Positions 1 through 13,353 of a DNA stretch of 64,000 bases are shown in pieces (the stretch's first letter is position 1; each line of letters begins with the position of its first letter). A model generated the notes under the pieces. That model saw only the letters and a list, made by a program, of their open reading frames with translations. It had not been told where the DNA came from and ran no database searches. The position numbers and the translations under genes are program-made. This DNA is from Myxococcota bacterium (GTDB lineage: Bacteria; Myxococcota_A; UBA9160; UBA6930), in assembly GCA_965223415.1 (NCBI GenBank), contig OZ245002.1:2528001-2592000 (forward strand), given 5' to 3'.

Positions 1-1
1 C

Positions 2-235
2 CGGCAGCGGCTTCTCCAACGCCTATCCCGGATCGGGAGCGGTGAGGGGTTCAGGCTTCTTGTGGATCGCCGGGCGGCGGTCGGACTGGTCGAGTCATCC
101 GGGTGGAAAGTCGAGCAAGCGACGAGCATCAGAGAAGCGGCTCGGGTCCTCGTAGGACGCGACGCTGGCCTACCAATCGAATCTGTGAACGAACACAAGA
201 CCCTGGTTGCCGCCATTCGAGCCGGAGAGGCTTGA
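2..235 (+). CDS. 3' end of a gene running in from the window edge; possibly a SAM-dependent (LCM-like) methyltransferase C-terminus
   Basis: Open frame from position 2 to TGA at 233-235 (RLLQRLSRIGSGEGFRLLVDRRAAVGLVESSGWKVE...). It converges on the cassette array. The family guess is weak. Confidence 0.4.
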   Translation, partial: RQRLLQRLSRIGSGEGFRLLVDRRAAVGLVESSGWKVEQATSIREAARVLVGRDAGLPIESVNEHKTLVAAIRAGEA

Positions 236-248
236 TCGCCGAGGCCCT

Positions 249-359
249 GCCCAACGGGTAGGCGGCCCGAAGCTCGCTGAGCCACCTGAGTTGGACCCAG
301 TGTACCACGCCAAGAGCGGAAGCAGCGGTTCCCCGGTCAGGTCCAACCCCTTGTTAGGC
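249..359 (-). other. integron attC site 1 (L' box deleted)
   Basis: Minus strand reads GCCTAAC-AAGGGGTTGGACCTGAC...CCGCCTACCC-GTTGGGC, directly after the stop of 366..860. The interior aligns with 6544-6646 but lacks the TCAGCTGC (L') segment. Confidence 0.8.
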
Positions 360-365
360 AGCTGC

Positions 366-860
366 TCACTCGACTCGATAGATCAGCCAAGCCGAAAAGA
401 CGATGAAGCCGACGCCGAGGCATGTAAGGAGGCCCAGTTGGAAGATGCCTGGGTTGAGCGAGATCACGCTGAGCCCGGTGACCAAGAGAGCACCGATCTC
501 GACGAAGACTGCGAGTGGCACAACCGCATAGAGGTAGGGGTAGGGACCGCGGTCGCCGGTGCGCTCGACGCTTCGATTGCGTTTCAGTACGAAGACGGAG
601 AAGAGAAGCATCGCGAGGCCGAGCGCCCCGCTGCAGGCCACCAAGGTTGTTTCAACGGCGACGCCAGTCTCGACTAACGCCGAGGGAACGAGAGAGAACA
701 CCAACGCCATGCCACTCCAGCCGAGCATCTGGCGGAGAGCTAGACGGTCTCGTTCGCTGAATCCGTCTTGGGCACGGCGCTGAAGGGCTGCCGCAACTCC
801 GGAGAACCCAGCTAGGGCTACTGCAATCTCGGCTATGACCTCGTAGGACTGTAGTTCCAT
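366..860 (-). CDS. integron cassette gene, hypothetical multi-pass membrane protein
   Basis: 164 aa with about 5 hydrophobic segments (AEIAVALAGFSGV motif). It lies between an R' remnant (AGGCGGC, 872-878) and attC1. Confidence 0.75.
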   Translation of the reverse strand: MELQSYEVIAEIAVALAGFSGVAAALQRRAQDGFSERDRLALRQMLGWSGMALVFSLVPSALVETGVAVETTLVACSGALGLAMLLFSVFVLKRNRSVERTGDRGPYPYLYAVVPLAVFVEIGALLVTGLSVISLNPGIFQLGLLTCLGVGFIVFSAWLIYRVE

Positions 861-878
861 CGGCTCGCGCAGCCGCCT

Positions 879-1268
879 TGTGTGTTCCGCCTAGCGCCAG
901 ATTCGGGATAGGGTAGGTGTTTCGATCGGGGAGACCGTAGCTGCCTGAAGCCAGGTGAGCCTGAGAGTTGGATGAATCCCCCGTCCTTCTCGCCATGCCT
1001 TGAAGTATGCGAGGCCCGAGAGCCCGGATCTACAAAGTCGGTAGACGAGGATTCAGGGTCGGGCGACCGAGCGAGATTCTACACCGAGGAGGGAAACGAG
1101 CGGGCCGGGAATGGGGGGCTGGCCCAGGCCTTGGTTCGTCGGCGCAGCGCCGCGCGTGTGCGTCGAGGTGAAGGGCATCTACCACCTCGAGCCGTGTCTG
1201 TGGCCGGACGACGCAGCTCGGATCGAGGTGATGGTGGCGAACCCGCGAGCCACGAAGGATCTTGGCTC
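879..1268 (+). mobile_element. degenerate IS110 remnant (left end, bridge-RNA region, eroded recombinase fragment), related to the element at 5304-6543
   Basis: Same junction GCCGC-CT-TGT as 5297-5306. Shares blocks GCTGCCTGAAGCCAG, GAGGCCCGAGAGCC, TCTACAA and CAGGGTCGGG. Peptide remnant VEVKGIYHLE...VMVANPRA resembles VLESTGVYGLD...VMVANPRA. Confidence 0.85.
930..1075 (+). ncRNA. orphan bridge-RNA-like sequence of the IS110 remnant
   Basis: Homologous to 5360-5495. Guide-position segments are GCTGCCT (940-946), GAGAGTTGG (963-971), GAAGTATG (1002-1009) and TACAA (1031-1035). Confidence 0.6.
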
Positions 1269-1270
1269 GG

Positions 1271-1291
1271 GTCAGCTGCAGCCGGTTAGGC
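1271..1291 (-). other. attC site 2, R''/L'' half only
   Basis: Minus strand GCCTAAC-CGGCTGCAGCTGAC overlaps the TAA stop of the DUF2442 gene. The rest is replaced by the IS110 remnant. Confidence 0.75.
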
Positions 1292-1558
1292 GGCGCCCCT
1301 CTGCTTGGGCGGCGCGGGTGCGCCGCGGAGGAGGCCTTCCGCACTGAGGTCTTCATCCACATCCGGCCAGTGAATTCCGTGGCCACCACCACAGAGCTCC
1401 CACTTCTCGCGTTGCTCACGGGTGGCGTGCAGGAGCCGAGGGAACCAAGCGAGCGGAACAGAAATGGTGCGACCATCAGCAAGCGTCGCGTGAAGCGAGT
1501 CGTCATCGATTTCGACATCGATGATTCGCTCGCCCGCTCTAGGTTCCGAAGTAACCAT
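1286..1558 (-). CDS. DUF2442 family protein (toxin-antitoxin pair with DUF4160)
   Basis: LADGRTISVPLAWFPRLLHAT...GIHWPDVDEDLSAEGLL is the typical DUF2442 signature. It overlaps the upstream DUF4160 gene. Confidence 0.9.
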   Translation of the reverse strand: MVTSEPRAGERIIDVEIDDDSLHATLADGRTISVPLAWFPRLLHATREQREKWELCGGGHGIHWPDVDEDLSAEGLLRGAPAPPKQRGAA

Positions 1559-1775
1559 TCCAGGCCTCGAAGAGAGATCGTTCGTTGGATCGAATCAGCG
1601 CTTCGATCTGTCGCAGTTCCCGCGGGCCGAACCCGAGGTTTCGCGCCAACCCAACCGGAGCGAGCCAGAACTTCGCGGTTCGATCGTCGCGATCAACGTG
1701 AACGTGCGGAGGTTCGTTCGGCTCATGGCTGTAGAAGTATATCCGGTAGGGTCCGGACCGAAGAACCGTCGGCAT
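1539..1775 (-). CDS. DUF4160 family protein (toxin-antitoxin pair with DUF2442)
   Basis: MPTVLRSGPYRIYFYSHEPNEPPHVHV...AKFWL...AWNGYFG is the typical DUF4160 signature. Confidence 0.9.
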   Translation of the reverse strand: MPTVLRSGPYRIYFYSHEPNEPPHVHVDRDDRTAKFWLAPVGLARNLGFGPRELRQIEALIRSNERSLFEAWNGYFGT

Positions 1776-1781
1776 GGCTCA

Positions 1782-1820
1782 CCGCAAGGTATCGGATTCC
1801 CAAGCGAAATCGCCTTGCGG
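1782..1820. promoter_or_regulatory. inverted repeat upstream of the TA operon, putative autoregulatory operator
   Basis: CCGCAAGG (1782-1789) and CCTTGCGG (1813-1820), starting 6 bp from the DUF4160 start codon. Confidence 0.45.
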
Positions 1821-1855
1821 CACCACCTCGCAGTAGGAGGGGGCCGAGGCACTAG

Positions 1856-3146
1856 CAGGCTGCGGAAAAACCCCGTGCGACGGGTCGAATCGGTTGGTAC
1901 AGGCATACCGGGGGGATGGAGATGCGCGGAACCGATCGAACGCAGTCCACGATGTTCAGCTACGTGTCGCCGGAGGCGCGTGTCCCCGCCGATCATCCAC
2001 TGCGCGTGACGCGGGAGATGACGAATCGCGCCCTGGTCCGGCTGGACGGGAGGTTGCGGAAGCTGTACTCGCGGACGGGTCGGCCGTCGATTCCGCCCGA
2101 GCACCTGTTGCGGGCCCTGCTGCTGCAGGTGCTCTACTCGGTGCGAAGCGAGCGGATGCTGATGGAGCAGCTCGAGTACAACCTGCTGTTCCGCTGGTTC
2201 GTGGGGCTCGAGATGGACGACCGGGTCTGGGACGTGACGGTGTTCACGAAGAATCGGGATCGGTTGCTTCGGGGAGAGATCGCGGAGGGGTTCTTTCAGG
2301 CCGTGTTGGCGGAGGCCCGCGAGGAGGGGCTTCTGTCGGACGAGCACTTCACGGTGGACGGCACGCTGATCGAGGCATGGGCGGGGCAGAAGAGCTTTCG
2401 GCCGAAGGACGAGGACCGGGGCGGCCGCGGGGGTGGACGGAAGGCGACGGAGCGGGACTTCCACGGTGAGCGTAGGAAGAACGACACGCACGCCTCGACG
2501 ACGGACCCGGAGTCCCGGCTCTACCGCAAGGGGAAGGGGAAGGAAGCGAAGCTGTGCTTCATGGGCCACGTGGTGACGGAGAACCGGCATGGCCTGGTGG
2601 TGGCGGCCAAGACGACGCTGGCCACGGGCACGGCGGAGCGCGAGGCCTCGGTGGCGATGGTGAAGCGGGTGCCACGCGGACGGCGATCGACGTTGGGCGG
2701 AGACAAGGGCTACGACACGGTGTCGCATGTCGAAGAGCTTCGAGAGCTGGGCGTGACCCCGCACGTCGCGCAGAACGACAAGGGCCGCCGCAGCGCGATC
2801 GATGATCGAACGACGACGCACGTGGGCTACGAGATCAGCCAGCGCAAACGCAAGGCGATCGAGCAGGTCTTCGGCTGGGGGAAGACGGTAGGCCCGATTC
2901 GCAAGGTGAAGCATCGCGGCAAGGAGCGGGTGGGCTGGATGTTCACGTTCACCCAGGCGGCCTACAACCTTGTGAGGATGAGGAACCTGCTATGCCCCAC
3001 GTAGCTTGTCGGGTCGAGTGGAGGGCCCCGTTGGCAGCGAGCCGGGCGTCAACCGGCGGCAAGGCCTCGATTCCGCGCTCCTTTCCTAGCCAAAGCGCCT
3101 CCAAGGCACCGTTCTCTGCGTACCATCGGCGTTCTTCCGCAGCCTG
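1856..3146 (+). mobile_element. IS5-family insertion sequence
   Basis: Terminal IRs CAGGCTGCGGAAAAAC / GTTCTTCCGCAGCCTG. CTAG target duplication at 1852-1855 and 3147-3150. Confidence 0.9.
1916..3004 (+). CDS. IS5-family DDE transposase
   Basis: MFSYVSPEARVPADHPLR, GRPSIPPE, FTVDGTLIEAWA, TTDPESRL, GGDKGYD and RKAIEQVFGWGK motifs. Confidence 0.92.
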   Translation: MEMRGTDRTQSTMFSYVSPEARVPADHPLRVTREMTNRALVRLDGRLRKLYSRTGRPSIPPEHLLRALLLQVLYSVRSERMLMEQLEYNLLFRWFVGLEMDDRVWDVTVFTKNRDRLLRGEIAEGFFQAVLAEAREEGLLSDEHFTVDGTLIEAWAGQKSFRPKDEDRGGRGGGRKATERDFHGERRKNDTHASTTDPESRLYRKGKGKEAKLCFMGHVVTENRHGLVVAAKTTLATGTAEREASVAMVKRVPRGRRSTLGGDKGYDTVSHVEELRELGVTPHVAQNDKGRRSAIDDRTTTHVGYEISQRKRKAIEQVFGWGKTVGPIRKVKHRGKERVGWMFTFTQAAYNLVRMRNLLCPT

Positions 3147-3350
3147 CTAGGACCCGGGGCCAAAGACGGAGAGATACGAGTCTAGGGCTGCGCTGAGCCA
3201 GCTGTCGTCGAGCCGCCGCAACTCGTCGATTCGCTCCTCGGGTTGGAGAATGTCGAGAAGGAGCTTCCCGAAGGGCAATTCGGGCTTGGCATCCCAGGCA
3301 CTGCCCAGCGCCTCGAGGATCTCCGCTCGCTCCTCTTCGCGGTTGGACAC
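3147..3350 (-). CDS. small hypothetical cassette protein
   Basis: 67 aa (ILEALGSAWDAKPELPFGKLL) with GTG start, downstream of attC3. Its TAG stop is part of the IS5 CTAG target. Confidence 0.55.
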   Translation of the reverse strand: MSNREEERAEILEALGSAWDAKPELPFGKLLLDILQPEERIDELRRLDDSWLSAALDSYLSVFGPGS

Positions 3351-3420
3351 CCCGCCAGCCTACCCCTAGAAGGTTCGCTCGCTGGCGCCCGATCGCGTCC
3401 AACCTGTCCGCGTTCGCCAA

Positions 3421-3521
3421 GCCGCCTTGTACCTCTGATCCAGCCGGCCAAGGAACAACCCCAGGCTACCATGGCCGTTTGAAGGGTGCTTGGAGCCGTC
3501 AGCTGCAGCCGCTTGTTAGGC
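3421..3521 (-). other. attC site 3 (R' disrupted by an 11-bp IS110 left-end scar)
   Basis: Minus strand GCCTAAC-AAGCGGCTGCAGCTGAC at 3498-3521. At the far end, GCCGC-CT-TGTACCTCTGA (3421-3438) is identical to 5297-5314. Confidence 0.8.
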
Positions 3522-3528
3522 GCCGCGC

Positions 3529-4786
3529 GGTACGGTCCGGCCACATCCTTTACAGGAGTCCAGGGACATCGTTTACACCCGGGGGATGCCCTGGATGGAA
3601 ACGGATGCAAGGAAGCAGCGGCAGGCGTTCGTTCGCGACTACGAGAGCGGTCAGTGGTCGATGAGCGAGCTGTGTCGGCGGTATCGTGTCTCCCGGCCCA
3701 CAGGCTACAAGTGGCTCGGGCGCTTCGAGTCGGAGGGGGAGGCCGGCCTGGAGGAGAGGTCCCGTGCGCCGGCTCGCTGCCCGCACAGGACGCCAGCGAG
3801 CGTGGAGCGCAAGATCCTGGCCCTTCGCGCCGAGTACGGCTGGGGTGCGAAGAAGATCTTGCAGGTGCTCGAGCGCCGGTACCCGAAGATGCAGAGGCCC
3901 GCGCGAAGCACGGTGAACGCGATCCTCGATCGCCACGGCAAGCTGCGCAAGAACCGACGTCGGAAGAAGTGGTCGCATCCCGGCGCTGCGTCGCTGTCGA
4001 CCGACCACCCGAACCAGGTGTGGCCCGCGGACTTCAAGGGCCAATTCAAGATGCGCAACGGTCGCTACTGCTACCCGCTGACCGTGACCGACCACTGCAG
4101 CCGCAAGCTCCTGATGTGCCGCGGGCTGCACTCGATTCGCACCGAGGGCGTGAAGCCGCTGTTTCGGGAGCTCTTTCGCGAGGTCGGACTTCCCGAGGCG
4201 ATTCGCACCGACAACGGTGCCCCCTTCGCATCGACCGGGATCCACGGCCTGTGCGAACTCAACGTGTGGTGGATGAAGCTCGGCATCGTGCACCAGCGCA
4301 TCCGTCCTTCGAGCCCCCAACAGAACGGGCAGCACGAGAGGATGCACAAGGACCTCAAACGCGAGGCGACCCGCCCGCCTGGCGCGAACCTCAACGTCCA
4401 GCAGCGGATGCTCGAGGCCTTTCGTCGACGCTACAACGAGGAGCGGCCGCACGAAGCACTCGGTGGAGCGTTTCCCGAGGAGCGCTACGAGCCCTCGCCG
4501 CGGCCGTACCCCAGTCGCCTCTCGCCGCCGGAGTACCCTGCGCAGATGGAAGTGCGCCGCGTGAGCCGGGCCGGGACGTTTCGGCTGAAGGCGAAGCAGC
4601 CCTTCCTGAGCAACGCACTGGCCGATGAGTACATCGGACTTGAAGAGATCGGCGACGGCATCTGGAGCATCGTCTACTACGAGACGATCCTGGGCCGCAT
4701 CGACGAGCGCAGCAGGAAGATCACCGGAGTCTGAGAGGTGTAAACGATCTACCTGGACTTGTGTAAAGGATCAGCCGGACCGGTCA
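3529..4786 (+). mobile_element. IS481-family insertion sequence
   Basis: Imperfect IRs of about 50 bp: CGGTCCGG..ATCCTTTACA..AGTCCAGG..ATCGTTTACACC and its complement at about 4737-4786. No clear TSD. Confidence 0.85.
3586..4734 (+). CDS. IS481-family transposase (HTH + rve integrase core)
   Basis: MPWMETD..SMSELCRRYRVSRPTGYKW; W.ADFKG, LTVTDHCSR, IRTDNGAPF, PQQNGQHERMH and YNEERPHEAL motifs. Confidence 0.93.
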   Translation: MPWMETDARKQRQAFVRDYESGQWSMSELCRRYRVSRPTGYKWLGRFESEGEAGLEERSRAPARCPHRTPASVERKILALRAEYGWGAKKILQVLERRYPKMQRPARSTVNAILDRHGKLRKNRRRKKWSHPGAASLSTDHPNQVWPADFKGQFKMRNGRYCYPLTVTDHCSRKLLMCRGLHSIRTEGVKPLFRELFREVGLPEAIRTDNGAPFASTGIHGLCELNVWWMKLGIVHQRIRPSSPQQNGQHERMHKDLKREATRPPGANLNVQQRMLEAFRRRYNEERPHEALGGAFPEERYEPSPRPYPSRLSPPEYPAQMEVRRVSRAGTFRLKAKQPFLSNALADEYIGLEEIGDGIWSIVYYETILGRIDERSRKITGV

Positions 4787-4790
4787 GGCC

Positions 4791-5249
4791 CTAGAACCTG
4801 GAGCTGAGCCAGGTCGCATTCCTGGCCAACAGAAAACCCACGAGAACCCTTGCGAGAGGAGACACCAGGTACCCGATGAACGTCGTCGAACTCATCCTCT
4901 CAGGAGCTGACATGGCCATTGAAAATAGAACTACGAACGCAGAGAGAAGCGAAGCAGAGCCTGCAGCCATGAAGAAGATCCCGAGCAGAACGACGCCGAG
5001 GGAGAGCCACTGCGCCCCCGGGGCAACGCTCGGCGGGTTGTGCTCTGGCATGCTGAATGCGACGTAACGCGAGAGCACCAGGAGGACGACTCCTGGAATC
5101 CAGTTGCCAGCTAGCGTGGGCCAGGAGTCCAACAGCATCGACGAGAGGGGCCTCACAAGATCCTCGGACTGGCCCATGACCAAGTAGTAACTGGAAGCCT
5201 CGTGGGCCCATTCGGCGACACCGGACGCAAGAAAGAACAGGCCGAGCAA
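4791..5249 (-). CDS. integron cassette gene, hypothetical membrane protein (start uncertain; frame open to about 5285)
   Basis: Four hydrophobic segments, lower GC, and located between the attC4 R' site and attC3. Confidence 0.65.
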   Translation of the reverse strand: MLGLFFLASGVAEWAHEASSYYLVMGQSEDLVRPLSSMLLDSWPTLAGNWIPGVVLLVLSRYVAFSMPEHNPPSVAPGAQWLSLGVVLLGIFFMAAGSASLLSAFVVLFSMAMSAPERMSSTTFIGYLVSPLARVLVGFLLARNATWLSSRF

Positions 5250-5344
5250 CGCCGTCCCAGTCCGCGCAACTTCGGTCAGCTTGAACCCCCCTTCGCGCCG
5301 CCTTGTACCTCTGAGCAGGCTCTTCGGGCCTGAGTGAGACTCCG

Positions 5345-5500
5345 AGATGGGTTCCCGGGAAAGGCCGTCGCTGCCTGAAGCCAGAGAGCTTGTCCGTTAG
5401 ATGGGCCTCCCGCCCTCGTCACCCATGCCGTGGAGTATCCGAGGCCCGAGAGCCTGCGTCTACAAGGTCCGTAGGTGAATGTGCAGGGTCGGGAGACCCG
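5345..5500 (+). ncRNA. bridge RNA of IS110-A (boundaries approximate)
   Basis: Target loop AGGCC[GTCGCTGCCTG]AAGC-CAGAGA-GCTT[GTCCGTTAGATG]GGCCT. Donor loop has GGAGTATC (5432-5439) and TACAAG (5461-5466) around the AGGC-CCGAGA-GCCT hairpin. Confidence 0.85.
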
Positions 5501-5530
5501 GGTCCCAGCTTATCACGGGGAGGAGAGACC

Positions 5531-6526
5531 TTGAAGAAGTGTCATTACGTGGGCGTGGACGTCGGGGCGAAGGAGCTCGTCGTCGCCATCGACCGGAACG
5601 GAACTCGCGAGGGCGGGCTGGTCTTTGCGAACGATCCCAAGGGCCACCAGAGGCTGATTCGGTGGGCCACGAAGGGGAATGCGACGGCGCGCGTCGTCCT
5701 GGAATCGACCGGGGTGTACGGCCTCGACCTCGCGTTCGCGCTTCACCGTGCGAAGGCGTCCCAGGTGATGGTGGCGAACCCGCGGGCCATTGCCGCGTTC
5801 GCCAAGGCATCGCTTCAACGCTCCAAGACGGATGCGCTCGATGCGGAAACGATTCTCGAGTTCGGAATGCGCATGGAGTTTTCCGCCTGGACTCCGCCGG
5901 ACCCCCGAATTCTGGAGGTACGGGCCCTCTCCCGCCGCGTGGAGGCTCTGAGCAAGACCGTGACGCAGGAGAAGAACCGGCTCCATGCCAACGACCAGAG
6001 CGAGGAGCTCAGTGAGTTCGTGAAGCAAGACATCCGCGAACTGATCGAGCTCCTGGAGGGGCGAATCGATCGGCTGCGCAAGCAAGCGTTGAAGGTGATC
6101 GAGCAGAGCCCCGAGCTCGCCAGAGACTTCGGCCACATCACATCGATCAAGGGTATCGCCGACGCAGCCGGCATCCAGTTGCTCGCCGAGCTAGGCACCT
6201 TGCCCAAGGACATGACGACCCGGCAATGGGTCGCGCATGCGGGCCTCGACCCCCGACAGTTTCAATCGGGCACCTCTGTGCACAAGCCAGCTCGCATCAG
6301 CAAGACCGGCAACGCCCACCTTCGCCGCGCACTCTTTCTTCCTGCGATGGTCGCTGCACGCTGGGAACCGAACGTGAAGGCCTTCTACGAGAAGCTGCTC
6401 TCCAAGGGCAAAACCAAGATGCAAGCACTCGTCGCCGTCATGCGGAAGCTGCTCCACGCCATCTACGGCATGCTCCGCCACGACCAGGACTTCCTTGGCG
6501 AGAAATTCTTCGCCACGAAGGGTTGA
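5531..6526 (+). CDS. IS110-family DEDD recombinase/transposase
   Basis: TTG start after AGGAGAG. Motifs VGVDVGAK, VLESTGVY, KTDALDA, HAGLDPRQFQSGTS, SKTGNAHLRRALF and VAVMRKLL. Confidence 0.95.
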   Translation: MKKCHYVGVDVGAKELVVAIDRNGTREGGLVFANDPKGHQRLIRWATKGNATARVVLESTGVYGLDLAFALHRAKASQVMVANPRAIAAFAKASLQRSKTDALDAETILEFGMRMEFSAWTPPDPRILEVRALSRRVEALSKTVTQEKNRLHANDQSEELSEFVKQDIRELIELLEGRIDRLRKQALKVIEQSPELARDFGHITSIKGIADAAGIQLLAELGTLPKDMTTRQWVAHAGLDPRQFQSGTSVHKPARISKTGNAHLRRALFLPAMVAARWEPNVKAFYEKLLSKGKTKMQALVAVMRKLLHAIYGMLRHDQDFLGEKFFATKG

Positions 6527-6543
6527 CGACGAAGGGAGTATCT

Positions 6544-6646
6544 AACGGACAGGCGGCTCAGCTGCTGGGCAGGCCCCGAAGCTCACTGAGGCGCCTGGGT
6601 GGAACCCAAGAGTACCACGCCCCAGTTGGAACGCGCGGTTGCCCGG
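6544..6646 (-). other. attC site 4, central segment with L' box (between IS110-A and IS1111-B)
   Basis: Minus strand GCAGCTGAGCCGCCTGTCCGTT, followed by AG-GC once IS110-A is removed. The interior is homologous to attC1 (CCGAAGCTC.CTGAG...GTACCACGCC...GCGGTT). Confidence 0.85.
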
Positions 6647-6724
6647 AGGGTATAGGGAGGTCAGCTCCTTGGAGAACAGCCACCTTGGCTGTGTTCCAAC
6701 AAACACTCCCCAAGGAGACTGACC

Positions 6725-7774
6725 ATGACGACAGAGTACTTCGCTGGGATCGACTTGCATCGCACCGTGATCCAGATCTGCGTGCTGGATGCGCGGGGTG
6801 AGAAGATCGCCGAGGAGAGGATCCGCTCCGAGAGCCTTGAACAGGGCCTCGGGGTCGTGGAGCGGCTGAAGTTCTTCGGACCCCATTGCCGCGTAGCCGT
6901 CGAGGCGTTGGGCCTCAACCGGTGGTTCGTCAACGCCTGCCGAGAGGCGCAGCTCGACGTTCTGGTCTGTGATCCGCGCAAGCTCGACCTGAAGAAGCTC
7001 GGCAAGAAGACGGACCGGCGAGATGCAGCCGAGATTGCACGCCGGCTCTGGCTCGGTGATCTGGATCGGGTGGCAACGACCTACTACCCGAGCGACGAGG
7101 AGTACGGGAGGAGGAAGCTCCTTCGGGTCCGCCACCGCCTCGTCCAGATGCGCCAACAGGCCGTGAACCAGCTCCGGGGCTTCCTGAACGCCTACCGGAT
7201 TCCCGCTCCCACGAGCGCGCTCTATACCAAGCCGAGCCGGGAGAAGCTCCGCACCGTCACCCTGCCGACCCTGGAGATGCAGACCGCCTTCAAGGCCCTG
7301 CTCCAGGTGCTCGATAGCCTGCAGGGCCAGGTGCTGGCTCTCGATCGGGAGATCCGACGGATCGGGCGAGAGGATCCCGACGTCCAGGCCCTCGAGCAGG
7401 AGCTCCCGAGCATCGGGACGCAATCGGCTGCCACGCTGCTCGCCGAGATCGGCGACCCGCACCGATTCCGAGGCCCCCGTGCGGTCTCGGCCTTCGCCGG
7501 CTTCACCCCCAAGGTGAACCAGTCAGCCGACCACGCCCACCACGGCCGCATGACCCGCCAAGGCCAGGCCGAGCTCCGCTGGATCGTCAGCCAATGGGCG
7601 GTTCGCCTGATGAAGGACGACCCGTTGGTTCGTGCCTGGGCGAAGACGATGCGGACCCGCGTCCACAAGAACAAGGTCCGCATGGCCTTGGCTCGCAGAC
7701 TCCTCGTCAGCGTCTGGGTCACGCTCACCCGCGGCGAGGCCTTCGATCTCCGGAGGTGCCTTGGCATGGCGTAG
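6725..7774 (+). CDS. IS110/IS1111-family recombinase
   Basis: AGIDLH, VAVEA, KKTDRRDA, AFAGFTPKVNQSA and MALARRL motifs. Confidence 0.93.
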   Translation: MTTEYFAGIDLHRTVIQICVLDARGEKIAEERIRSESLEQGLGVVERLKFFGPHCRVAVEALGLNRWFVNACREAQLDVLVCDPRKLDLKKLGKKTDRRDAAEIARRLWLGDLDRVATTYYPSDEEYGRRKLLRVRHRLVQMRQQAVNQLRGFLNAYRIPAPTSALYTKPSREKLRTVTLPTLEMQTAFKALLQVLDSLQGQVLALDREIRRIGREDPDVQALEQELPSIGTQSAATLLAEIGDPHRFRGPRAVSAFAGFTPKVNQSADHAHHGRMTRQGQAELRWIVSQWAVRLMKDDPLVRAWAKTMRTRVHKNKVRMALARRLLVSVWVTLTRGEAFDLRRCLGMA

Positions 7775-7802
7775 CCCCGCTCCCCCAGGACCCCTTCTCG
7801 CT

Positions 7803-7968
7803 TGTGTTCCAACGAAGACGGTAGGCGGGCAGCTGACTGCGGCCCATGAGCCCTTGGCCCCGATTCACCACCGTCGCCCCGAACCCCTCATTGAGCCCAC
7901 GAGGCCGACAACGCGTTTGGACTGAACCCGAACCCGCAGGGACGCAAGCCGATTCCGTTGGAGGACAC
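7803..7968 (+). ncRNA. seek/bridge RNA of IS1111-B
   Basis: Closing stem GTGTTCCAACG / CGTTGGAGGACAC. Inner stem GACGGT/ACCGTC encloses GCAGCTGAC (7829-7837), the exact reverse complement of the right flank GTCAGCTGC (8022-8030). Confidence 0.7.
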
Positions 7969-8021
7969 CACCAAGACCCACACGTGCTTCGCGATCATTG
8001 GAGTTGACACTCCCTAAACGG

Positions 8022-8037
8022 GTCAGCTGCAGCCGCT
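8022..8037 (-). other. attC site 4, L'' segment (between IS1111-B and IS110-C)
   Basis: GTCAGCTGCAGCCGCT is identical to attC3 3498-3513, where it continues TGTTAGGC. Confidence 0.85.
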
Positions 8038-8064
8038 CCTATGATGCTAGGCATGGTTAGATGA

Positions 8065-8250
8065 AGCGGCCGGTGAGCAGAGGCACTGCCCACCGGCCTT
8101 TCTCAACCGGAGCGGAAGACCGGTAGCCGTCGGGTCCCTCGTGAGACCGTTAACCAGCTTGGGTCTCCGCTCCACAGCCGCAGCGAAGCTCGAACGATCG
8201 CCTGGGCCTCTTGCGAGAGCCCGTAACCAGGAGCCCGAGTTCGTTGCACC
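8065..8250 (+). ncRNA. bridge RNA of IS110-C
   Basis: 5' hairpin GGCCGGTG..CACCGGCC. Target loop closed by GGAGCGGA/TCCGCTCC holds GTAGCCG (8123-8129) and TAACCAGC (8151-8158). Donor loop holds AGGAG (8229-8233), complementary to the left end CT-CCT. Confidence 0.7.
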
Positions 8251-8262
8251 TTGGAGTCTACC

Positions 8263-8805
8263 ATGGGGATGAACGTCGGGATCGACGTCTCGAAACACTC
8301 GCTTGATTGGACCTCAGGAAGCAAGGGGAAGCTTCAGCACACCCGCAACGAGCCGCGGGCCATCGCCCACCTCCTGCGTCGGATGGCCGAGCTCGACCCC
8401 GAGCGCATCGTCGTCGAGTCGACCGGGGGCTACGAGCGCCCGGTGGTCCAGAAGCTCGCCGAGGCGGGACTCCCGGTCGTCGTCGTGAACCCGGTTCGCG
8501 TTCGGCGCTTCGCCGAAGGCCTGGGGCTGCTGGCGAAGACGGACGCGGCAGATGCGCAGGTGCTCGCACTCTACGGCGAGAAGGCCGGGCCGCCGATCCG
8601 GCCGATTCCGATGGGGAGAAGCCGTCTGCTGGCCGATCTCATCGCACGGCGCCGCCAGCTCGTCTCGATCCTGGTGGCCGAGAAGGGTCGGCGGGAAGCG
8701 GCGCCTCGAGCTGCGCAGGCCTCGATCACGAGGATTCTCCGTGCTCTCGAGCGCGAGGTCGACGGCATCGACCAGCGCATCCAGAAGGCGATCGAAGACG
8801 ACCTC
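8263..8805 (+). pseudogene. IS110 recombinase, N-terminal DEDD half only
   Basis: VGIDVSK, VVESTGGYE and AKTDAADA motifs. The frame runs into the IS21 end at 8806, and the C-terminal domain is not found after 11107. Confidence 0.88.
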
Positions 8806-8940
8806 TGTCGAGGGACGTCATCTCTTGCGCGCTAAGAGGACGGCTAGTTTTGCGCACCCCCCTGGGTTGATGTTCGGTTCTTCCTTCTTCTCTTCCGCTC
8901 TCCGAAGGAGAGCACGGCCGTCAGGCCGCCCTCTGGGGCC

Positions 8941-9741
8941 TCAACGCTGGGCGCTTTGCCCCGCGGCCTGCTCGAGCTCGCGGAGCCGGTAGCTCCGCCC
9001 CGAGATGTTGAGCACCTGGCTGTGGTGGAGGAGGCGATCGAGGATGGCGGTGGCCAGCACCTCGTCGCCCGCCAGCACCTCGGGCCAGTCGGCGATGCCC
9101 TTGTTCGTGGTGATCAGGATCGAGCCCCTCCCATAGCGGTAGGAGACGAGCCGGAAGAAGAGGCTCGCCTCCTGGCGCGTCATGGGCTCGAAGCCGACCT
9201 CGTCGATGACGAGGAGCGCCACGTTCATGTGCTTGCGCCGCCGCAGCCGTTGCGGGCTGATCTCGGCGTCGCGCTTGAGGGCCGCCAGCAGGTCCTCGAG
9301 GCGATGGAAGGCCACGGAGAAGCCGTTCTCCACGGCCCGCACCCCCAGGGCCACCGCCAGGTGGGTCTTGCCCACTCCCGGCGGACCCTGGATCAGCAGA
9401 CTCTCCTTGGCCCGGATCCACGCGCAGGTGCCCAGCGTCTCGATCCGGCTCCGCTCCACACTCGGCTGGAAGGCGAAGTCGAAGTTGCCGAGGGTCTGCC
9501 CCGTGGGAAGGCCCGAGAGACGGAGCGAGGTCTTCATCCTCCGCTCCTCGCGGTGCTGCAGCTCGGCCTCGAGCAGCAGGTCGAGGAAGCGGTGGGGCAC
9601 GAGGTCGTCCTTGGTCGCTCGGGCCAGCTCCTCGCCGATGTGCTCGGCCGCGTGATGGAGGCCGAGGCGCACGAGCCGCTCGCGGGTCGGGTCGAGATCC
9701 ACCTTGCCGCCCTTCTTGGGCACCGGGTTTCCCGCCGTCAT
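8941..9741 (-). CDS. istB: IS21 helper AAA+ ATPase
   Basis: FDFAFQP, GPPGVGKTHLA, LLVIDEVG, ITTNK and AILDRLLHH motifs. Confidence 0.95.
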   Translation of the reverse strand: MTAGNPVPKKGGKVDLDPTRERLVRLGLHHAAEHIGEELARATKDDLVPHRFLDLLLEAELQHREERRMKTSLRLSGLPTGQTLGNFDFAFQPSVERSRIETLGTCAWIRAKESLLIQGPPGVGKTHLAVALGVRAVENGFSVAFHRLEDLLAALKRDAEISPQRLRRRKHMNVALLVIDEVGFEPMTRQEASLFFRLVSYRYGRGSILITTNKGIADWPEVLAGDEVLATAILDRLLHHSQVLNISGRSYRLRELEQAAGQSAQR

Positions 9742-11024
9742 CGCGCCACCTCCGCCAGATCGGCATAGAGGTCGATCGGCCGCTGCTCCGGCTCCATCGC
9801 CCACAGCTCCTGGAGGCGTCGACCCATGCGCCCGAGCGGTACGGGCGCCTCCACCCCCTCCGTGCTCGGCCCCTCGTAGTGGCTCGGGTCCAGCAGCAGG
9901 CGGCTTCGCGTGTGGCGCGGGTGCGCGGCCACCACCGAGCCCTCGGCCCAGACCTGCACCTGCCGGGCGCAGCCGCGCACCTCGACGCTCTGCTCGACGA
10001 AGCGGAAGGGGACGCTGTAGGTACGCCCCTCGAAGCGCACCGTGGCGTCGCGCCCGACACGTCGCATCACGGCCAGGTCGAAGGGCTCGGGAAGCCGCTC
10101 GGGCAGGGCCCCGAGATGGGGCTTCTCCGCCTCCCACGCCTGGAAGACCGTCGTGCCCGTCGCCGGGCACTGCCGCCGGTGGCTCGAGCGCGCCACCTGG
10201 CCGTCCGTCCACGCTTGCAGCGACTCCAGGCTCTCGTGCTCCCGCCGACGCGGATCGAAGCCCCGCCGGTGCCCCAGGATCCGACGCTCCACCTTCCCCT
10301 TCTCCTGCGGCTGGCGGGGACGGGTGGCGTCCACGTGGAAGCGAAGGGCCCCGGCATAGCTCGCGTAAGCCGGGTTCACCGTCCCCCATGGCCCCGCCCC
10401 CTTCGCCACCGCTGTCTTCACGTTGTCGACCCGCAGCACCGCCGGCACCCCGCCCAGCCGCTCGAAGGCCCGGTTGTGCACGTCCAGCCACGCCAGCGTG
10501 TCCGCCCGCTCCGACCACACCACCGCTTCTCGCCGCGAGTGCGAGAGCACCAGGTGGAAGGCATGCAGGTCCACCTCCTGGCCCCCGATCCGCACGCCCG
10601 GAAACTCGCCCCAGTCCACCTGACCCTGCGCCCCGGGCGGTGTCTCCACCCGACGCCGGCTCCGCACCTTCGGTCTCGGGAACCGGGCCCGCACGTACCG
10701 CTGCACGCTCTTGGAGCTCCCCGTGTACCCGTGCTCCTCCACCAGGAACTCGTGAAGCTCCTGCAGGTTCACGCCACGGCCTCCCGAGCTCGCCTCCAGC
10801 CACTCCGCGATCACCTCGTGGACCGCCTCGGCCAGGAAGGGCTTCCCGCTCCGGCCGTCTCGCGCCCCCTCCGCCAGCCGCTTCAGCCGGTAGCGCACCG
10901 CGCTCTCCCGGATCCCCAGCTGGCGGGCGATCTCCCGGTTCGAGCACCCCCGCTCGTGCAGCACTTCGATCGTCATCACTTCCTCCTGCCTCAGTCGCCG
11001 CTGCCCCACGCCCCCCTCCCTCAC
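9738..11024 (-). CDS. istA: IS21 transposase
   Basis: N-terminal HTH, ETPPGAQGQVDWG, LSHSRR, VDNVKTAV, KGKVER and YSVP motifs. Overlaps istB by 4 bp. Confidence 0.95.
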   Translation of the reverse strand: MREGGVGQRRLRQEEVMTIEVLHERGCSNREIARQLGIRESAVRYRLKRLAEGARDGRSGKPFLAEAVHEVIAEWLEASSGGRGVNLQELHEFLVEEHGYTGSSKSVQRYVRARFPRPKVRSRRRVETPPGAQGQVDWGEFPGVRIGGQEVDLHAFHLVLSHSRREAVVWSERADTLAWLDVHNRAFERLGGVPAVLRVDNVKTAVAKGAGPWGTVNPAYASYAGALRFHVDATRPRQPQEKGKVERRILGHRRGFDPRRREHESLESLQAWTDGQVARSSHRRQCPATGTTVFQAWEAEKPHLGALPERLPEPFDLAVMRRVGRDATVRFEGRTYSVPFRFVEQSVEVRGCARQVQVWAEGSVVAAHPRHTRSRLLLDPSHYEGPSTEGVEAPVPLGRMGRRLQELWAMEPEQRPIDLYADLAEVAR

Positions 11025-11324
11025 GGGGAACGTGCCGCGCAGCGGCTCAACAGGAGGTGCGCAAATCTACGTGTCCTCTTAGCCCTCGAATATCACGTCC
11101 TGCGACAGTGCCGTCTGGTGCCGCCGCAGTTGTGCGTTCGAGTCCCCACCGCGTTTGCGAAATTGAGAACTGACCCTCAGGCTCGCGGAAGGAGGGTCAC
11201 TCGTAGCTTCCCGCCTAACCGCGAATGCCTGATCCAATAGGCTGAAAGGAATTCGAACCCCCGACCCTTGTATCTACTCCACTCACCCGGATCTGGTTCA
11301 ATAGGGTCAGAACGGGTTTCGGGG

Positions 11325-11465
11325 GAGGGTCGCCGTCCCGACCCAGAGGCATGGTCCTCGTACCTGAGAGAGGCGCCCTCGCCCGATCTCGCAAGCTCGA
11401 ACGGTATCCCGAGGCAGCGGTCTGCCGCTCGTCCTCGCATGCACAAGGAAGAGCACCGAGGTCGG
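11325..11465 (+). ncRNA. bridge RNA of IS110-D
   Basis: Target loop GAGGGTCGCC[GTCCCGACCCA]GAGG-CATGGT-CCTC[GTACCTGAGAGA]GGCGCCCTC. Donor guides ACGGTATC (11401-11408) and ACAAG (11443-11447). Confidence 0.85.
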
Positions 11466-11507
11466 CACCGAGGCTCCCGACGCTCCCGTTCGAGGAGGAA
11501 GAAGGGG

Positions 11508-12683
11508 ATGCGCTTCGTTGGGATCGACATCGCCTCGGAAACGCACGTCGTCGCGATGGTGGGAGAAGACGGGGGCGTGCTGCTGAAGCCGGTCTCGTTC
11601 CGGGAGGAGGCGGCTGGCTACGCACTGCTGTGGGAGAAGCTGGGAGGCCCCGAGGACACGCTCGTAACGCTCGAGGCAACGGGGCACTACTGGAAGAACC
11701 TGTTCGCGGCGCTTGCGGCGAGGGGTTTTGCCGTGGCGTTGATCAACCCGCTGCGCAGTCGCCGGTTCGCACAAGAAGACTTGGAGCGGACGAAGACCGA
11801 CGCAATCGATGCGCTCGGCCTGGCTCGCTTCGGAGCACAGAAGCGTCCGAGGGTGACTCGCCTTCCGGACGCGGCGACAGAAGAGCTTCGTGAGCTCGTC
11901 CGGCTCCGCGATCGTCTGGTTCAGGACTTCGGGGACTGCACCCGGCGGCTCCACCGCATGGTCGATCTGGGCTTCCCAGAGCTCAAACGGTACGTGAAGC
12001 ACCTCGATAGCCAGCTGTCGACGGGGCTGCTGCGGGAGTACCCCACGGCAAGAGCCTTCCAGGAAGCCTCTGTGGGGCGCGTGGCAAAGCTTCGCTACGA
12101 CGGTCGTCATCGTGTAGGCGATGCGCTCGCGAAGCAGCTCGTCGAGGCTGCGCAGAACTCGGTGGGCGCCCATCATGGCCCGGCCTACCAGGTGCAGGTG
12201 CGTTACCTGTGCGAAGACATGGACGTCTTGCGCAAGAGACTCGGCGACATCGACCGCGACATCGCGGATCAGCTATCCGCGCACGAGGTCGGAAGCTTGC
12301 TGACGACGATCGATGGGATCGGGCCGACGACGGCAGCACGGCTCATCGCGGAGCTCGGTGACCCGGCCGACTTCGCCACGGCCGCAGCCCTCGCCGCCTA
12401 CGTGGGCGTCGTTCCAGGCCTAAAGCAGTCGGGCAAGCGCCAAGGCAAACGCGGGAACCTCTCGCCAATCGGTCACGCGCGGCTACGTCGCGCACTGTGG
12501 ATGCCGACGTTGGTCGCCGTTCGGAAGAACCCCTGGGTGCGGGCCCACTACGAGCGGCTGCGCGACAACGGCAAGCCCGCAAAGGTCGCGCTGATCGCCT
12601 CGACGAGGAAGCTGCTCATCGCGGTTCACGTCGTGGCGAGGACCCGCAAGCCCTTCGTTCCACAGCTAGAGACCAACCCATGA
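11508..12683 (+). CDS. IS110-family recombinase
   Basis: VGIDIAS, LEATGHYW, KTDAIDA, YVGVVPGLKQSG and GHARLRRALW motifs. Confidence 0.95.
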   Translation: MRFVGIDIASETHVVAMVGEDGGVLLKPVSFREEAAGYALLWEKLGGPEDTLVTLEATGHYWKNLFAALAARGFAVALINPLRSRRFAQEDLERTKTDAIDALGLARFGAQKRPRVTRLPDAATEELRELVRLRDRLVQDFGDCTRRLHRMVDLGFPELKRYVKHLDSQLSTGLLREYPTARAFQEASVGRVAKLRYDGRHRVGDALAKQLVEAAQNSVGAHHGPAYQVQVRYLCEDMDVLRKRLGDIDRDIADQLSAHEVGSLLTTIDGIGPTTAARLIAELGDPADFATAAALAAYVGVVPGLKQSGKRQGKRGNLSPIGHARLRRALWMPTLVAVRKNPWVRAHYERLRDNGKPAKVALIASTRKLLIAVHVVARTRKPFVPQLETNP

Positions 12684-12773
12684 ACCGAGAAAACCGGGCC
12701 CAGCCCCTTGCTGAAGATCACGGTATCTCAGGTTCGAAGCCTGGGGGTCGGGGGCTCTCCCACCCCACGCGTC

Positions 12774-13322
12774 CTAGTCGAGGAATGCCCACAAGAGCCG
12801 TCGGCTCCTCGCGTCCAGGCTCCCCGGGCTCGACACCAGGTAGAGATCCCCGGCCACGTCCTTGATCAGGAGGCCGCCGCCGGGCATCTCGCGGGGCCAC
12901 TCGTCCCGGAGGGTCTGGAAGCTGCGCTCGCCCTGGGCCGTGCGCACGCGGAAGGTGCGGATCTCGATCTCCTCGTCCACGTCGAGCACCGCCTGGATCT
13001 CGAGCACGAAGCCCGCCTCGAGCAAGGCCGTGCCCAGCGCCCGCTGGGCCGTGTAGGGGAGGTCGGTGAGGTCGCGCACGAGCGCCACCTCCTCCTCGTC
13101 CCGGTCACGGAGCGAGACGTAGCGCGACGGCTTCGACCAGGGGAAGCAGCGCACGGGCCGCACCGAGCAGGTGCGGTCGGCAGTGCGCGCCCAGAGCTGG
13201 CCGTCGGAGCCACGCCACAGCTCGAGGCCCGCCATCGGGCGCCGCGGAGCCTGGTGCGCCACGGCGCGTCCGCGCCGGCTGGGTGCGAGGGTCTTCGGCT
13301 CTCGTCTCTGCGGGTCGTTCAT
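12774..13322 (-). CDS. DUF1854 domain protein
   Basis: VRPVRCFPWS.P..YVSL..EEVALV and GLLIKDVAGDLY..SLDARSRRLL motifs; in its usual position downstream of this ABC transporter family. Confidence 0.8.
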   Translation of the reverse strand: MNDPQRREPKTLAPSRRGRAVAHQAPRRPMAGLELWRGSDGQLWARTADRTCSVRPVRCFPWSKPSRYVSLRDRDEEEVALVRDLTDLPYTAQRALGTALLEAGFVLEIQAVLDVDEEIEIRTFRVRTAQGERSFQTLRDEWPREMPGGGLLIKDVAGDLYLVSSPGSLDARSRRLLWAFLD

Positions 13323-13353
13323 GGTTGTCCCTCGTTTCTTTCGTTCGTCTCGT

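Follow-up and report, generated by a model that had tools for sequence, protein, structure and literature searches.

Three IS110-family elements within a single integron attC site of a Myxococcota genome

The stretch of DNA analysed here (the window, 64,000 nucleotides, C1:2528001-2592000) belongs to the 5.83-Mb genome of a Myxococcota bacterium (GCA_965223415.1), which consists of a single contig (OZ245002.1, abbreviated C1 in coordinates). Between positions 5297 and 8805 of the window, three insertion sequence (IS) elements with recombinases of the IS110 family, referred to as A, B and C, interrupt a single attC, the recombination site of integron gene cassettes. A and C are of the IS110 type and B is of the IS1111 type. 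The elements, their putative guide segments, the pieces of the interrupted attC and the other attC sites of the array are collected in Table 1, in which, as throughout the text, a slash within a sequence marks the point of insertion.

Table 1. Features of the window, in window coordinates
Feature	Position	Strand	Remarks
Left attC piece, GCCGCCT	5297..5303	+	its last four bases open the bottom-strand R' box, GCCTAAC
Middle attC piece	6544..6646	+	AAC of R', spacer GGAC, L' (GGCGGCTCAGCTGC), variable loop, end ...GCCCGG
Right attC piece within the window	8022..8037	+	L'' (GTCAGCTGCAGCCGCT)
Element A, IS110-type, core CT	5304..6543	+	PF01548 and PF02371, 92.2 and 73.8 bits
A recombinase, 331 aa	5531..6526	+	Pfam domains
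A putative left-target guide, CGCUGCCU(GA)	5369..5378	+	resembles the left target CGCCGCCT and hence binds the bottom strand; conserved loop position
A putative right-target guide, GCUUGUCCGUUAG	5388..5400	+	pairs with top-strand CTAACGGACAGGC, 13 nt, 1 G:U
A putative donor-binding loop	5432..5468	+	two donor guides
A putative left-donor guide, GGAGUAUC	5432-5439	+	matches the A right end
A putative right-donor guide, UACAAGGU	5461-5468	+	pairs with the CT+TGTA junction to the A left end
Element B, IS1111-type	6647..8021	+	Pfam, 59.8 and 74.3 bits; ends ambiguous by shared GG
B recombinase, 349 aa	6725..7774	+	Pfam domains
B candidate guide, GCAGCUGACU	7829..7838	+	pairs with top-strand G/GTCAGCTGC, 10 nt; variable interior of a covarying stem
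Element C, 5' part only, IS110-type	8038..8805	+	PF01548, 65.8 bits; 5' non-coding 8038-8262, truncated recombinase open reading frame 8263-8805
C putative target-binding loop	8123..8158	+	two target guides
C putative left-target guide, GUAGCCGU	8123-8130	+	reads like GCAGCCGC
C putative right-target guide, UUAACCAGC	8150-8158	+	pairs with GCTGGTTAG
C putative left-donor guide, GAACGAUCGCC	8192..8202	+	reads like C's own right end ...AACACGATCGCT; covaries across the family
IS21-like element cutting C	8806..11107	-	IstA-type and IstB domains; 17 other full-length copies
Intact attC of the same array	249..359	+	30.8 bits
attC with degenerate, internally deleted A-like element in R' box	872..1291	+	A-like part 879-1270, 76% identity over 138 nt; L'' and R'' intact, 1271-1291
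attC with 11-nt stub of A left end and deletion	3421..3521	+	stub 3428-3438 at the same GCCGCCT/ position; intact twin C1:2773679-2773819

The interrupted attC and its three insertions

The repeat at this locus is an integron attC. Members of the same family occupy C1:2064411-2077392, on the minus strand in window orientation, and directly adjoin the integron integrase gene of the genome (C1:2062393-2063328, minus strand; TIGR02249, 449.7 bits with a cut-off of 265). Because the same repeats adjoin the integrase ~465 kb away, the window array is read as an integrase-less attC cluster. The integrase and the cassettes of an integron are usually divergent, and the cassettes of the window array lie on the minus strand. 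On the basis of this layout, the plus strand of the window is the attC bottom strand, and the box labels R', L'' and R'' are assigned on that footing. The integrase crossover falls within the R' box of attC, and the extrahelical bases are found on the L'' side.

The ends of the repeat fit RYYYAAC and GTTRRRY, present in intact relatives as a paired GCCTAAC...GTTAGGC. The consensus of 12 sites comprises 25 base pairs, 7 of them with compensatory change, and displays an L'/L'' stem bulged in its 3' arm, a variable loop and an unpaired spacer of 6 nt on one side versus 2 nt on the other. In the attC under study, A splits the left box, and the right box is found past the right end of C, at C1:2437xxx.

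To rejoin the site, A and B were excised by their coordinates, the stump of C was removed and the three remaining pieces were joined. Intact repeats of the same family can be aligned with the product over its whole length, and a hidden Markov model (HMM) built from the 12 intact attCs only gives it 34.7 bits over model positions 2-122 of 130, compared with 2.5 bits for the highest-scoring of 300 shuffles. A sister site with both A and B (C1:2774317-2779349) scores 45.1 bits over positions 2-130, and the DNA folds of the rejoined sites reproduce the R/L stem pattern of intact relatives. An alignment of our attC covariance model (R1) to the isolated middle piece, at 12.8 bits, was spurious and was not used.

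Both the element boundaries proposed in the initial annotation, which agree with the sequence and with the genome copies, and its claim that excision restores one attC homologous to the intact ones are upheld by these comparisons. The same holds for the three sub-sites that it assigned, given here on the bottom strand: GCCT/AAC within R' for A, CCCGG/GTCAGCTGC at the inner edge of L'' for B and GCCGCT/GGTTAG at the junction of L'' and R'' for C. As a correction to it, the site within the window lacks the R'' box, and only this box, which accompanies the right half of C from C1:2436784 onward.

Element A is present in six identical genome copies, in all of which the left flank ends with CT and the element ends with ...GAGTATCT (...GTATCT). 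Terminal inverted repeats and a true target duplication are absent, and the CT core is common to the left flank and the element end. Its non-coding ends measure 227 nt (5') and 17 nt (3').

Element B has the layout of IS1111 elements, with a 5' non-coding end of 78 nt, a 3' end of 247 nt and subterminal inverted repeats (6655-6668 and 8000-8014) that match at ~12-13 of 14-15 positions; such repeats measure 7-17 bp in the IS1111 group. The genome harbors two full copies, one copy without the first 27 nt, another interrupted by an IS21-like element that is flanked by a 6-bp duplication, and a short stub of the left end elsewhere. All copies are in attC; all have the right flank GTCAGCTGCAGCCGCT, those keeping their left flank abut ...CCCGG, and GG or CGG is common to the target and the element end. 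In the attC under study, B lies 16 nt from the L''/R'' junction, with its gene on the strand opposite to the cassettes. The left subterminal repeat (6659-6666) contains GGTCAGCT, which equals the first bases of the target G/GTCAGCT (8021-8029).

Element C is unique in the genome, with non-coding ends of 225 nt (5') and ~35 nt (3'). It is cut by an IS21-like element, whose flanking bases in the window show no target duplication. The right half of C is found ~100 kb upstream, from C1:2436784 onward and directly after another IS21 copy, as a stretch (C1:2436789-2437166) that is 82% identical to the C-terminal part of a full-length C relative (tblastn). It starts with GACCTC, the same bases as at window positions 8800-8805 (the 6-bp IS21 duplication), and it ends with ...AACACGATCGCT followed by GGTTAGC (...GATCGCT/GGTTAGC). 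Because the right half carries both GACCTC and the GGTTAG flank, C was probably intact when the IS21-like element landed, and sat between GCAGCCGCT and GGTTAG, that is, at the L''/R'' junction. The left flank and the element end both read CT in the window, in the right half and in relatives.

The two halves of C (C1:2434477-2437300 and window positions 8800-11113) each adjoin an IS21-like copy, and the two copies have the same orientation, which suggests that a ~100-kb segment was rearranged with the involvement of IS21 and the halves thereby split. A simple IS21 cointegrate of a 100-kb circle finds no support in the outer flanks of the two IS21 copies, which share no duplication.

Guide segments and relatives of the elements

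The 5' non-coding end of A contains four putative guide segments that match the target and the element ends. The match of the right-target guide was reached by 0 of 1000 shuffles, and this is the only guide in the window that is significant by shuffling alone. Alignment of 20 distinct A-family leaders gives two stem-loop modules with the four guides in internal loops and 9 compensatory pairs.

Among the 193 genomes of the order, 20 (including this one) encode A-like recombinases at E <= 1e-40. From the other genomes 23 loci were fetched, of which 21 have the leader pattern and make up, with the window copy, a table of 22 elements, several of them multiple copies within one genome; the two remaining loci are one that is cut and contains Ns and one that is degenerate. 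Runs of at least 7 matching positions from the core are found for the left guide in 17 of the 22 elements and for the right guide in 16 of the 19 with an available right flank. All 19 of these flanks start with AACG, mostly as AACGGA followed by an L'-like GGCGCTCAGC. Of the 17 A-like elements with at least 60 nt of flank, 10 show a full-length match to the R1 model whose start lies exactly 4 nt within the right end of the element. Because the match starts inside the element, the last four bases of A, ATCT, together with the remaining AAC are read as standing in for R'.

Sequence variants within the A family change in concert with their sites. GCCGCAU guides go with GCCGCAT flanks in four elements, and UGUCCGCCU goes with GTCCGCCT. 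On the donor side, guide GGAGGAUC is found with the element end ...GAGGATCT and guide GGAGCGUC with the end ...GAGCGTCT. In four elements (L036, L038, L039 and L046) the left flank and the left guide end with AT, and the element end and the right guide keep CT, so that these elements have naturally unequal cores at the two junctions.

Relatives of A in metagenomes (19 loci) extend this picture. Their right flanks start with AACG (4 loci), ATCCG (8) or TCAGGG (5) and are missing in 2, and the retargeted recombinases are 83-86% identical to A. The guides are readable at four loci and match the flanks at each: the complement of TCTAACGGA occurs twice with AACGGA, and that of TCTATCCGA twice with ATCCGA. 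Metagenome contigs L077, L079-L081 and L083-L086 encode recombinases 83-86% identical to A with guides for CCTGCCT/ATCCGA. The flank of L084 runs into a long near-perfect hairpin (CTGCCTCAGCTCGTGACCGG...CGGTCACGAGCTGAGGCAG), which looks like a different repeat family as target.

The guide matches of C, two to the target and one to its own right end, derive their support from comparison with relatives and not from the window itself. The N-terminal half of C has similar counterparts in 18 of the 193 genomes, including this one (E <= 1e-20), and 13 sequences of the family share an RNA structure with 13 compensatory pairs. The left guides track the left targets (AGCGCCU with AGCGCCT, AAGCCCU with AAGCCCT, AUUCGCU with ATTCGCT). 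Right flanks start with GGTT or TGTT in 14 of 15 cases; the exception, L018, has the flank GGTACC and a correspondingly changed guide, the complement of GCTGGTACA. Cognate guide-target pairs beat 5000 of 5000 permutations on the left and all but 9 of 5000 on the right, counts that are inflated by kinship.

The positions of C-like elements recur in other genera. A genome from a different genus of the same family (G169) contains a 19-kb stretch with at least 10 intact attCs at a spacing of ~500-600 bp, and here three intact C-like copies each lie between GCAGCCGCT (or GTAGCCGCT) and TGTTAG(G), the element ending with ...GATCGCT. Another genome (G010) has one C-like copy between GCAGCGCCT and TGTTAGGC. 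In a further genome (G046, contig C16, 255534-259651; L052 and L020), A-like and C-like elements lie within ~3 kb of each other with attC model matches between them, a second case of the A and C families in one array.

For B, the guide evidence is thinner than for A and C and consists of one 10-nt match together with the location of all copies in attC. The candidate guide would occupy the interior of a stem with 12 pairs, 6 of which show compensatory change in 6 sequences, and the same segment is found in a 75%-identical B relative from a Gemmatimonadota bin (L067). Another Myxococcota genome has a 73%-identical remnant in one of its attCs, at GGGGCCCGG/, which is the equivalent position of the site. 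Relatives further removed (43-54% identical) lie at other ...GG/ sites. B itself is present in 3 of the 193 genomes, including this one.

Mapping the flanks of homologues, which the initial annotation had suggested together with an analysis of guide-target covariation, answers the refuting condition that it had set, homologues with the same guides at non-attC sites: elements of the A family with the same guides sit at matching sequence, and those with changed guides sit at other sites. Its proposal of two lineages with 5'-encoded bridge RNAs fits A and C, in each of which four putative guide segments match the target and the element ends. The broader claim of a guide-like match for every element is borne out in full for A and, through its relatives, for C, but only in part for B, for which a single guide segment was found.

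Proposed independent RNA-guided insertion and its alternatives

We consider it highly likely that one attC has received three independent, RNA-guided insertions of IS110-family elements at different short stretches of its sequence. The recombinases of A, B and C are pairwise 25-30% identical, in line with the three distinct lineages that had been proposed for them. The A and B elements at the sister site are 100% identical to those in the window, and the two attC sequences differ at many positions; since the attCs differ while the elements are identical, the two A-plus-B arrangements are best read as separate recent insertions. The stretches recognised would be 5296-5303 and 6544-6554 for A, the last bases before 6647 together with 8022-8030 for B, and 8029-8037 together with the lost GGTTAG for C. 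The stretches of B and C overlap by two bases, with their crossover points 16 bp apart. Because no insertion removes the site of another element, three elements can stack in one attC.

In this proposal, the deeply separated lineages would each have been steered to the attC by their own non-coding RNA. A, with a 5' bridge RNA of the IS110 type, would recombine at the CT of GCCGCCT/AACGG, inside the R' box. B, with a 3' seek or bridge RNA of the IS1111 type, would recombine at ...CCCGG/GTCAGCTGC, at the inner edge of L''. C, again with a 5' bridge RNA of the IS110 type, would recombine at the CT of GCAGCCGCT/GGTTAG, between L'' and R''. Later, an IS21-like element presumably entered C, and a rearrangement between IS21 copies would have carried the right half of C with R'' ~100 kb away. 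This order of events is the one that the nested arrangement suggests.

Transcription of the RNAs would be expected from promoters formed across the junctions of circular intermediates. Joining the ends in silico yields predicted promoters for A (TTGACG-17-TACCTC), B (TTGACA-16-TATAGG) and C (TTGACC-17-TATGAT), and a sigma-70 scan of the linear sequence 5200-8900 found 0 sites, promoters being expected across circle junctions only. Contigs of four sequencing runs contained only copies with known flanks and no excision or circle joints, the search being confined to contigs.

Several observations weigh against this explanation or limit its reach. That the RNAs are produced and guide recombination would follow by analogy with IS621, ISEc11 and ISKpn4. 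The rejoined attC was judged by HMM and folding, which stand in for a covariance model. In 7 of the 17 A-like elements with at least 60 nt of right flank, no abutting attC model match was found at E <= 0.1. The top-strand guide match of B is marginal, being reached by 62 of 1000 shuffles, and a bottom-strand guide was found neither in the two non-coding ends nor by aligning relatives; the best bottom-strand match was equalled by 999 of 1000 shuffles, and the only clean one, GGUCAGCU, belongs to the left subterminal repeat and falls outside the seekRNA region as published. Taken from the window alone, the guide matches of C are within chance, as 158 and 335 of 1000 shuffles reach them. The permutation counts of the C family overstate its support, as related elements are not independent samples. 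At L029 (G169:C1:160001-179000), three C-like copies occupy the usual attC position with a left guide, AAGCCAAGA, that matches at only 4 of 8 positions, a misfit that the guide model leaves unexplained.

The strongest qualification concerns A, three of whose six genome copies are outside recognisable attCs and share only 9-12 bases with attC. Their sites are GCTCACCT/AACGGG (inside a small palindrome), GCTGCTCT/AAGGGG and CGCCGCCT/AACGGT, and the attC covariance model found no match at these three loci. One further copy is in the integron array at GCCGCCT/AACCC, beside a short hairpin, where the attC model gives no score. Because half of its copies lie outside recognisable attCs, A reads a sequence of 12-14 nt and not the attC structure, and it is not strictly attC-bound. 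The initial annotation had described A as aimed at attC; the match itself stands, by the 13-nt guide and the R' position, but a specificity for attC alone does not. Similarly, its statement that the lineages have converged on attC agrees with the recurrence of A and C relatives at attC in many genera, but as a claim of convergence it is overstated and not proven.

The same dispersed copies bear on the alternative that the folded attC hairpin is what the elements recognise, by protein-DNA contacts of the kind made by the integron integrase and the attC-targeting group II introns, with the RNA complementarity being incidental. All three insertion sites are within a structured palindromic element, and the GGTCAGCT that the left subterminal repeat of B shares with its target hints at likeness at the DNA level. 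Against this, the three non-attC sites of A have only a 9-12-nt sequence in common with attC, in relatives 83-86% identical to A altered guides go together with correspondingly altered target sequences, and L018 of the C family behaves likewise. In addition, the guide loops vary while the stems are conserved. We therefore regard hairpin recognition as very improbable.

Equally, the pile-up might not reflect three targeted insertions, if a composite block of A, attC and B had been copied, or if cassette arrays tolerate random insertions that are lost elsewhere. The second locus with the same A-plus-B arrangement would fit the former, and the abundance of other insertion sequences in the array (IS21-like, IS481-like and a DDE transposase) the latter. 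However, the two A-plus-B attCs differ at many positions while carrying identical elements, and the flanks beyond attC differ as well. Random insertion would not give the base-exact junctions seen in every copy and in other genera, and altogether we give such a pile-up hardly any credence. That the repeat belongs to another palindromic, REP-like family, as the lack of an integrase in the window and the cassette-sized open reading frames without Pfam match might suggest, is scarcely believable given that the same family directly adjoins the integron integrase, has RYYYAAC...GTTRRRY ends, spacer asymmetry, a bulged L stem and a variable loop, and occurs at cassette-length spacing in G169.

A-type elements might coexist with the integron and not simply destroy the attC. 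The right end of A-type elements, ...ATCT followed by AAC, rebuilds a consensus R' box, at which the integrase could still cut; the element would then travel at the front of the cassette that follows it. Bridge-RNA elements might thus use cassettes as vehicles, and the three lineages might hold the attC sub-sites as stable niches, with B and C freezing cassettes and A riding on them. We consider this extension doubtful.

Known systems and the surrounding array

The closest known counterpart is the IS1111-attC group (ISPa21, ISPst6, ISKpn4, ISPa25). In the available parts of its description, these are DEDD recombinases that use one fixed attC position and orientation, form a monophyletic group and have their insertions close to the 5' end of attC, in antisense orientation relative to the cassettes (Leon and Roy 2010, PMC3001079). 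A 3'-encoded seekRNA that matches both target strands has been demonstrated in ISKpn4 and ISPst6 and is predicted in ISPa25, the second, bottom-strand match lying downstream of the first in the sections available (Siddiquee 2024, PMC11187229). In the IS1111 group, the two matches overlap at the insertion point. As far as these sources describe the group, B shares its IS1111 layout, its antisense orientation and its position near the attC 5' end. In contrast, A and C differ from the group described there in being of the IS110 type with a 5' RNA, and A is located at the other end of attC, in R'. The recombinase of B is at most 32% identical to any plasmid-borne relative found in a search of a plasmid collection. 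Group IIC-attC introns, too, have their insertion point close to the 5' end of attC, in the orientation opposite to the cassettes, according to the parts of the same article available to us (PMC3001079); they share only the attC niche, being retroelements with a wholly different mechanism.

For the IS621/IS110 group, the available portions of the published account describe a long 5' non-coding end with an RNA in which a target-binding loop precedes a donor-binding loop, the core being included in both pairings and the promoter being rebuilt across the circle junction (Durrant 2024, PMC11208160). A and C share with this description the long 5' end, the predicted two-loop RNA, the four putative guides and the predicted junction promoter. 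Two differences from what these portions state are apparent. The natural target here is an integron attC, as opposed to the REP-type repeats mentioned for IS621-type elements (PMC11208160), and the predicted right-target pairing of A spans 13 nt, compared with the 4-7 nt stated for the family (PMC11208160).

Later integron surveys, in the parts available, cite only the IS1111-attC group for the targeting of attC (PMC11616780, PMC11089894). In a literature search that covered open-access and bioRxiv full text, with subscription journals outside, we found neither IS110-type attC targeters with a 5' RNA nor several lineages in one attC. The mechanism is a published one, as is the target class for the sister group, and no new mechanism is involved. 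New are two further lineages with two further attC positions, the retargeting among close relatives and the rebuilt R' box at the right end of A. The two IS110-type lineages with predicted 5' bridge RNAs recur at their attC positions across many genera of one Myxococcota order. The recombinases that are 83-86% identical to A, with different guides and different sites, offer a natural comparative case of bridge-RNA retargeting. Of the four attCs in the window, three are not intact, and each of these has an A-type insertion, or what is left of one, at the same base, which bears on how chromosomal cassette arrays decay. Split sites of this kind will be missed by attC finders. The findings also raise the question of whether an insertion in R' leaves attC usable by the integrase.

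At least six kinds of insertion sequence crowd the small array of the window. The gene of a DDE transposase (DUF772 and DDE_Tnp_1) lies at 1916-3004, and an IS481-type element (rve, LZ_Tnp_IS481 and HTH domains; approximate ends 3536-4786) is found just past the R'' of the attC at 3421-3521. An Rfam scan of window positions 1-14000 at E <= 1 gave zero matches. A tRNA scan found none, so that the tRNA-like appearance of 11120-11160 was not borne out. A fourth IS110-family element, D, occupies 11247-12746; it has both Pfam domains, a 5' non-coding end of ~260 nt and four other copies in the genome. Its flanks, ...CGAACCCCCGACCCT and CAGGTTCGAAGCCTGGGGGTCGGGGG, show partial complementarity, so that its target may be a palindromic repeat.

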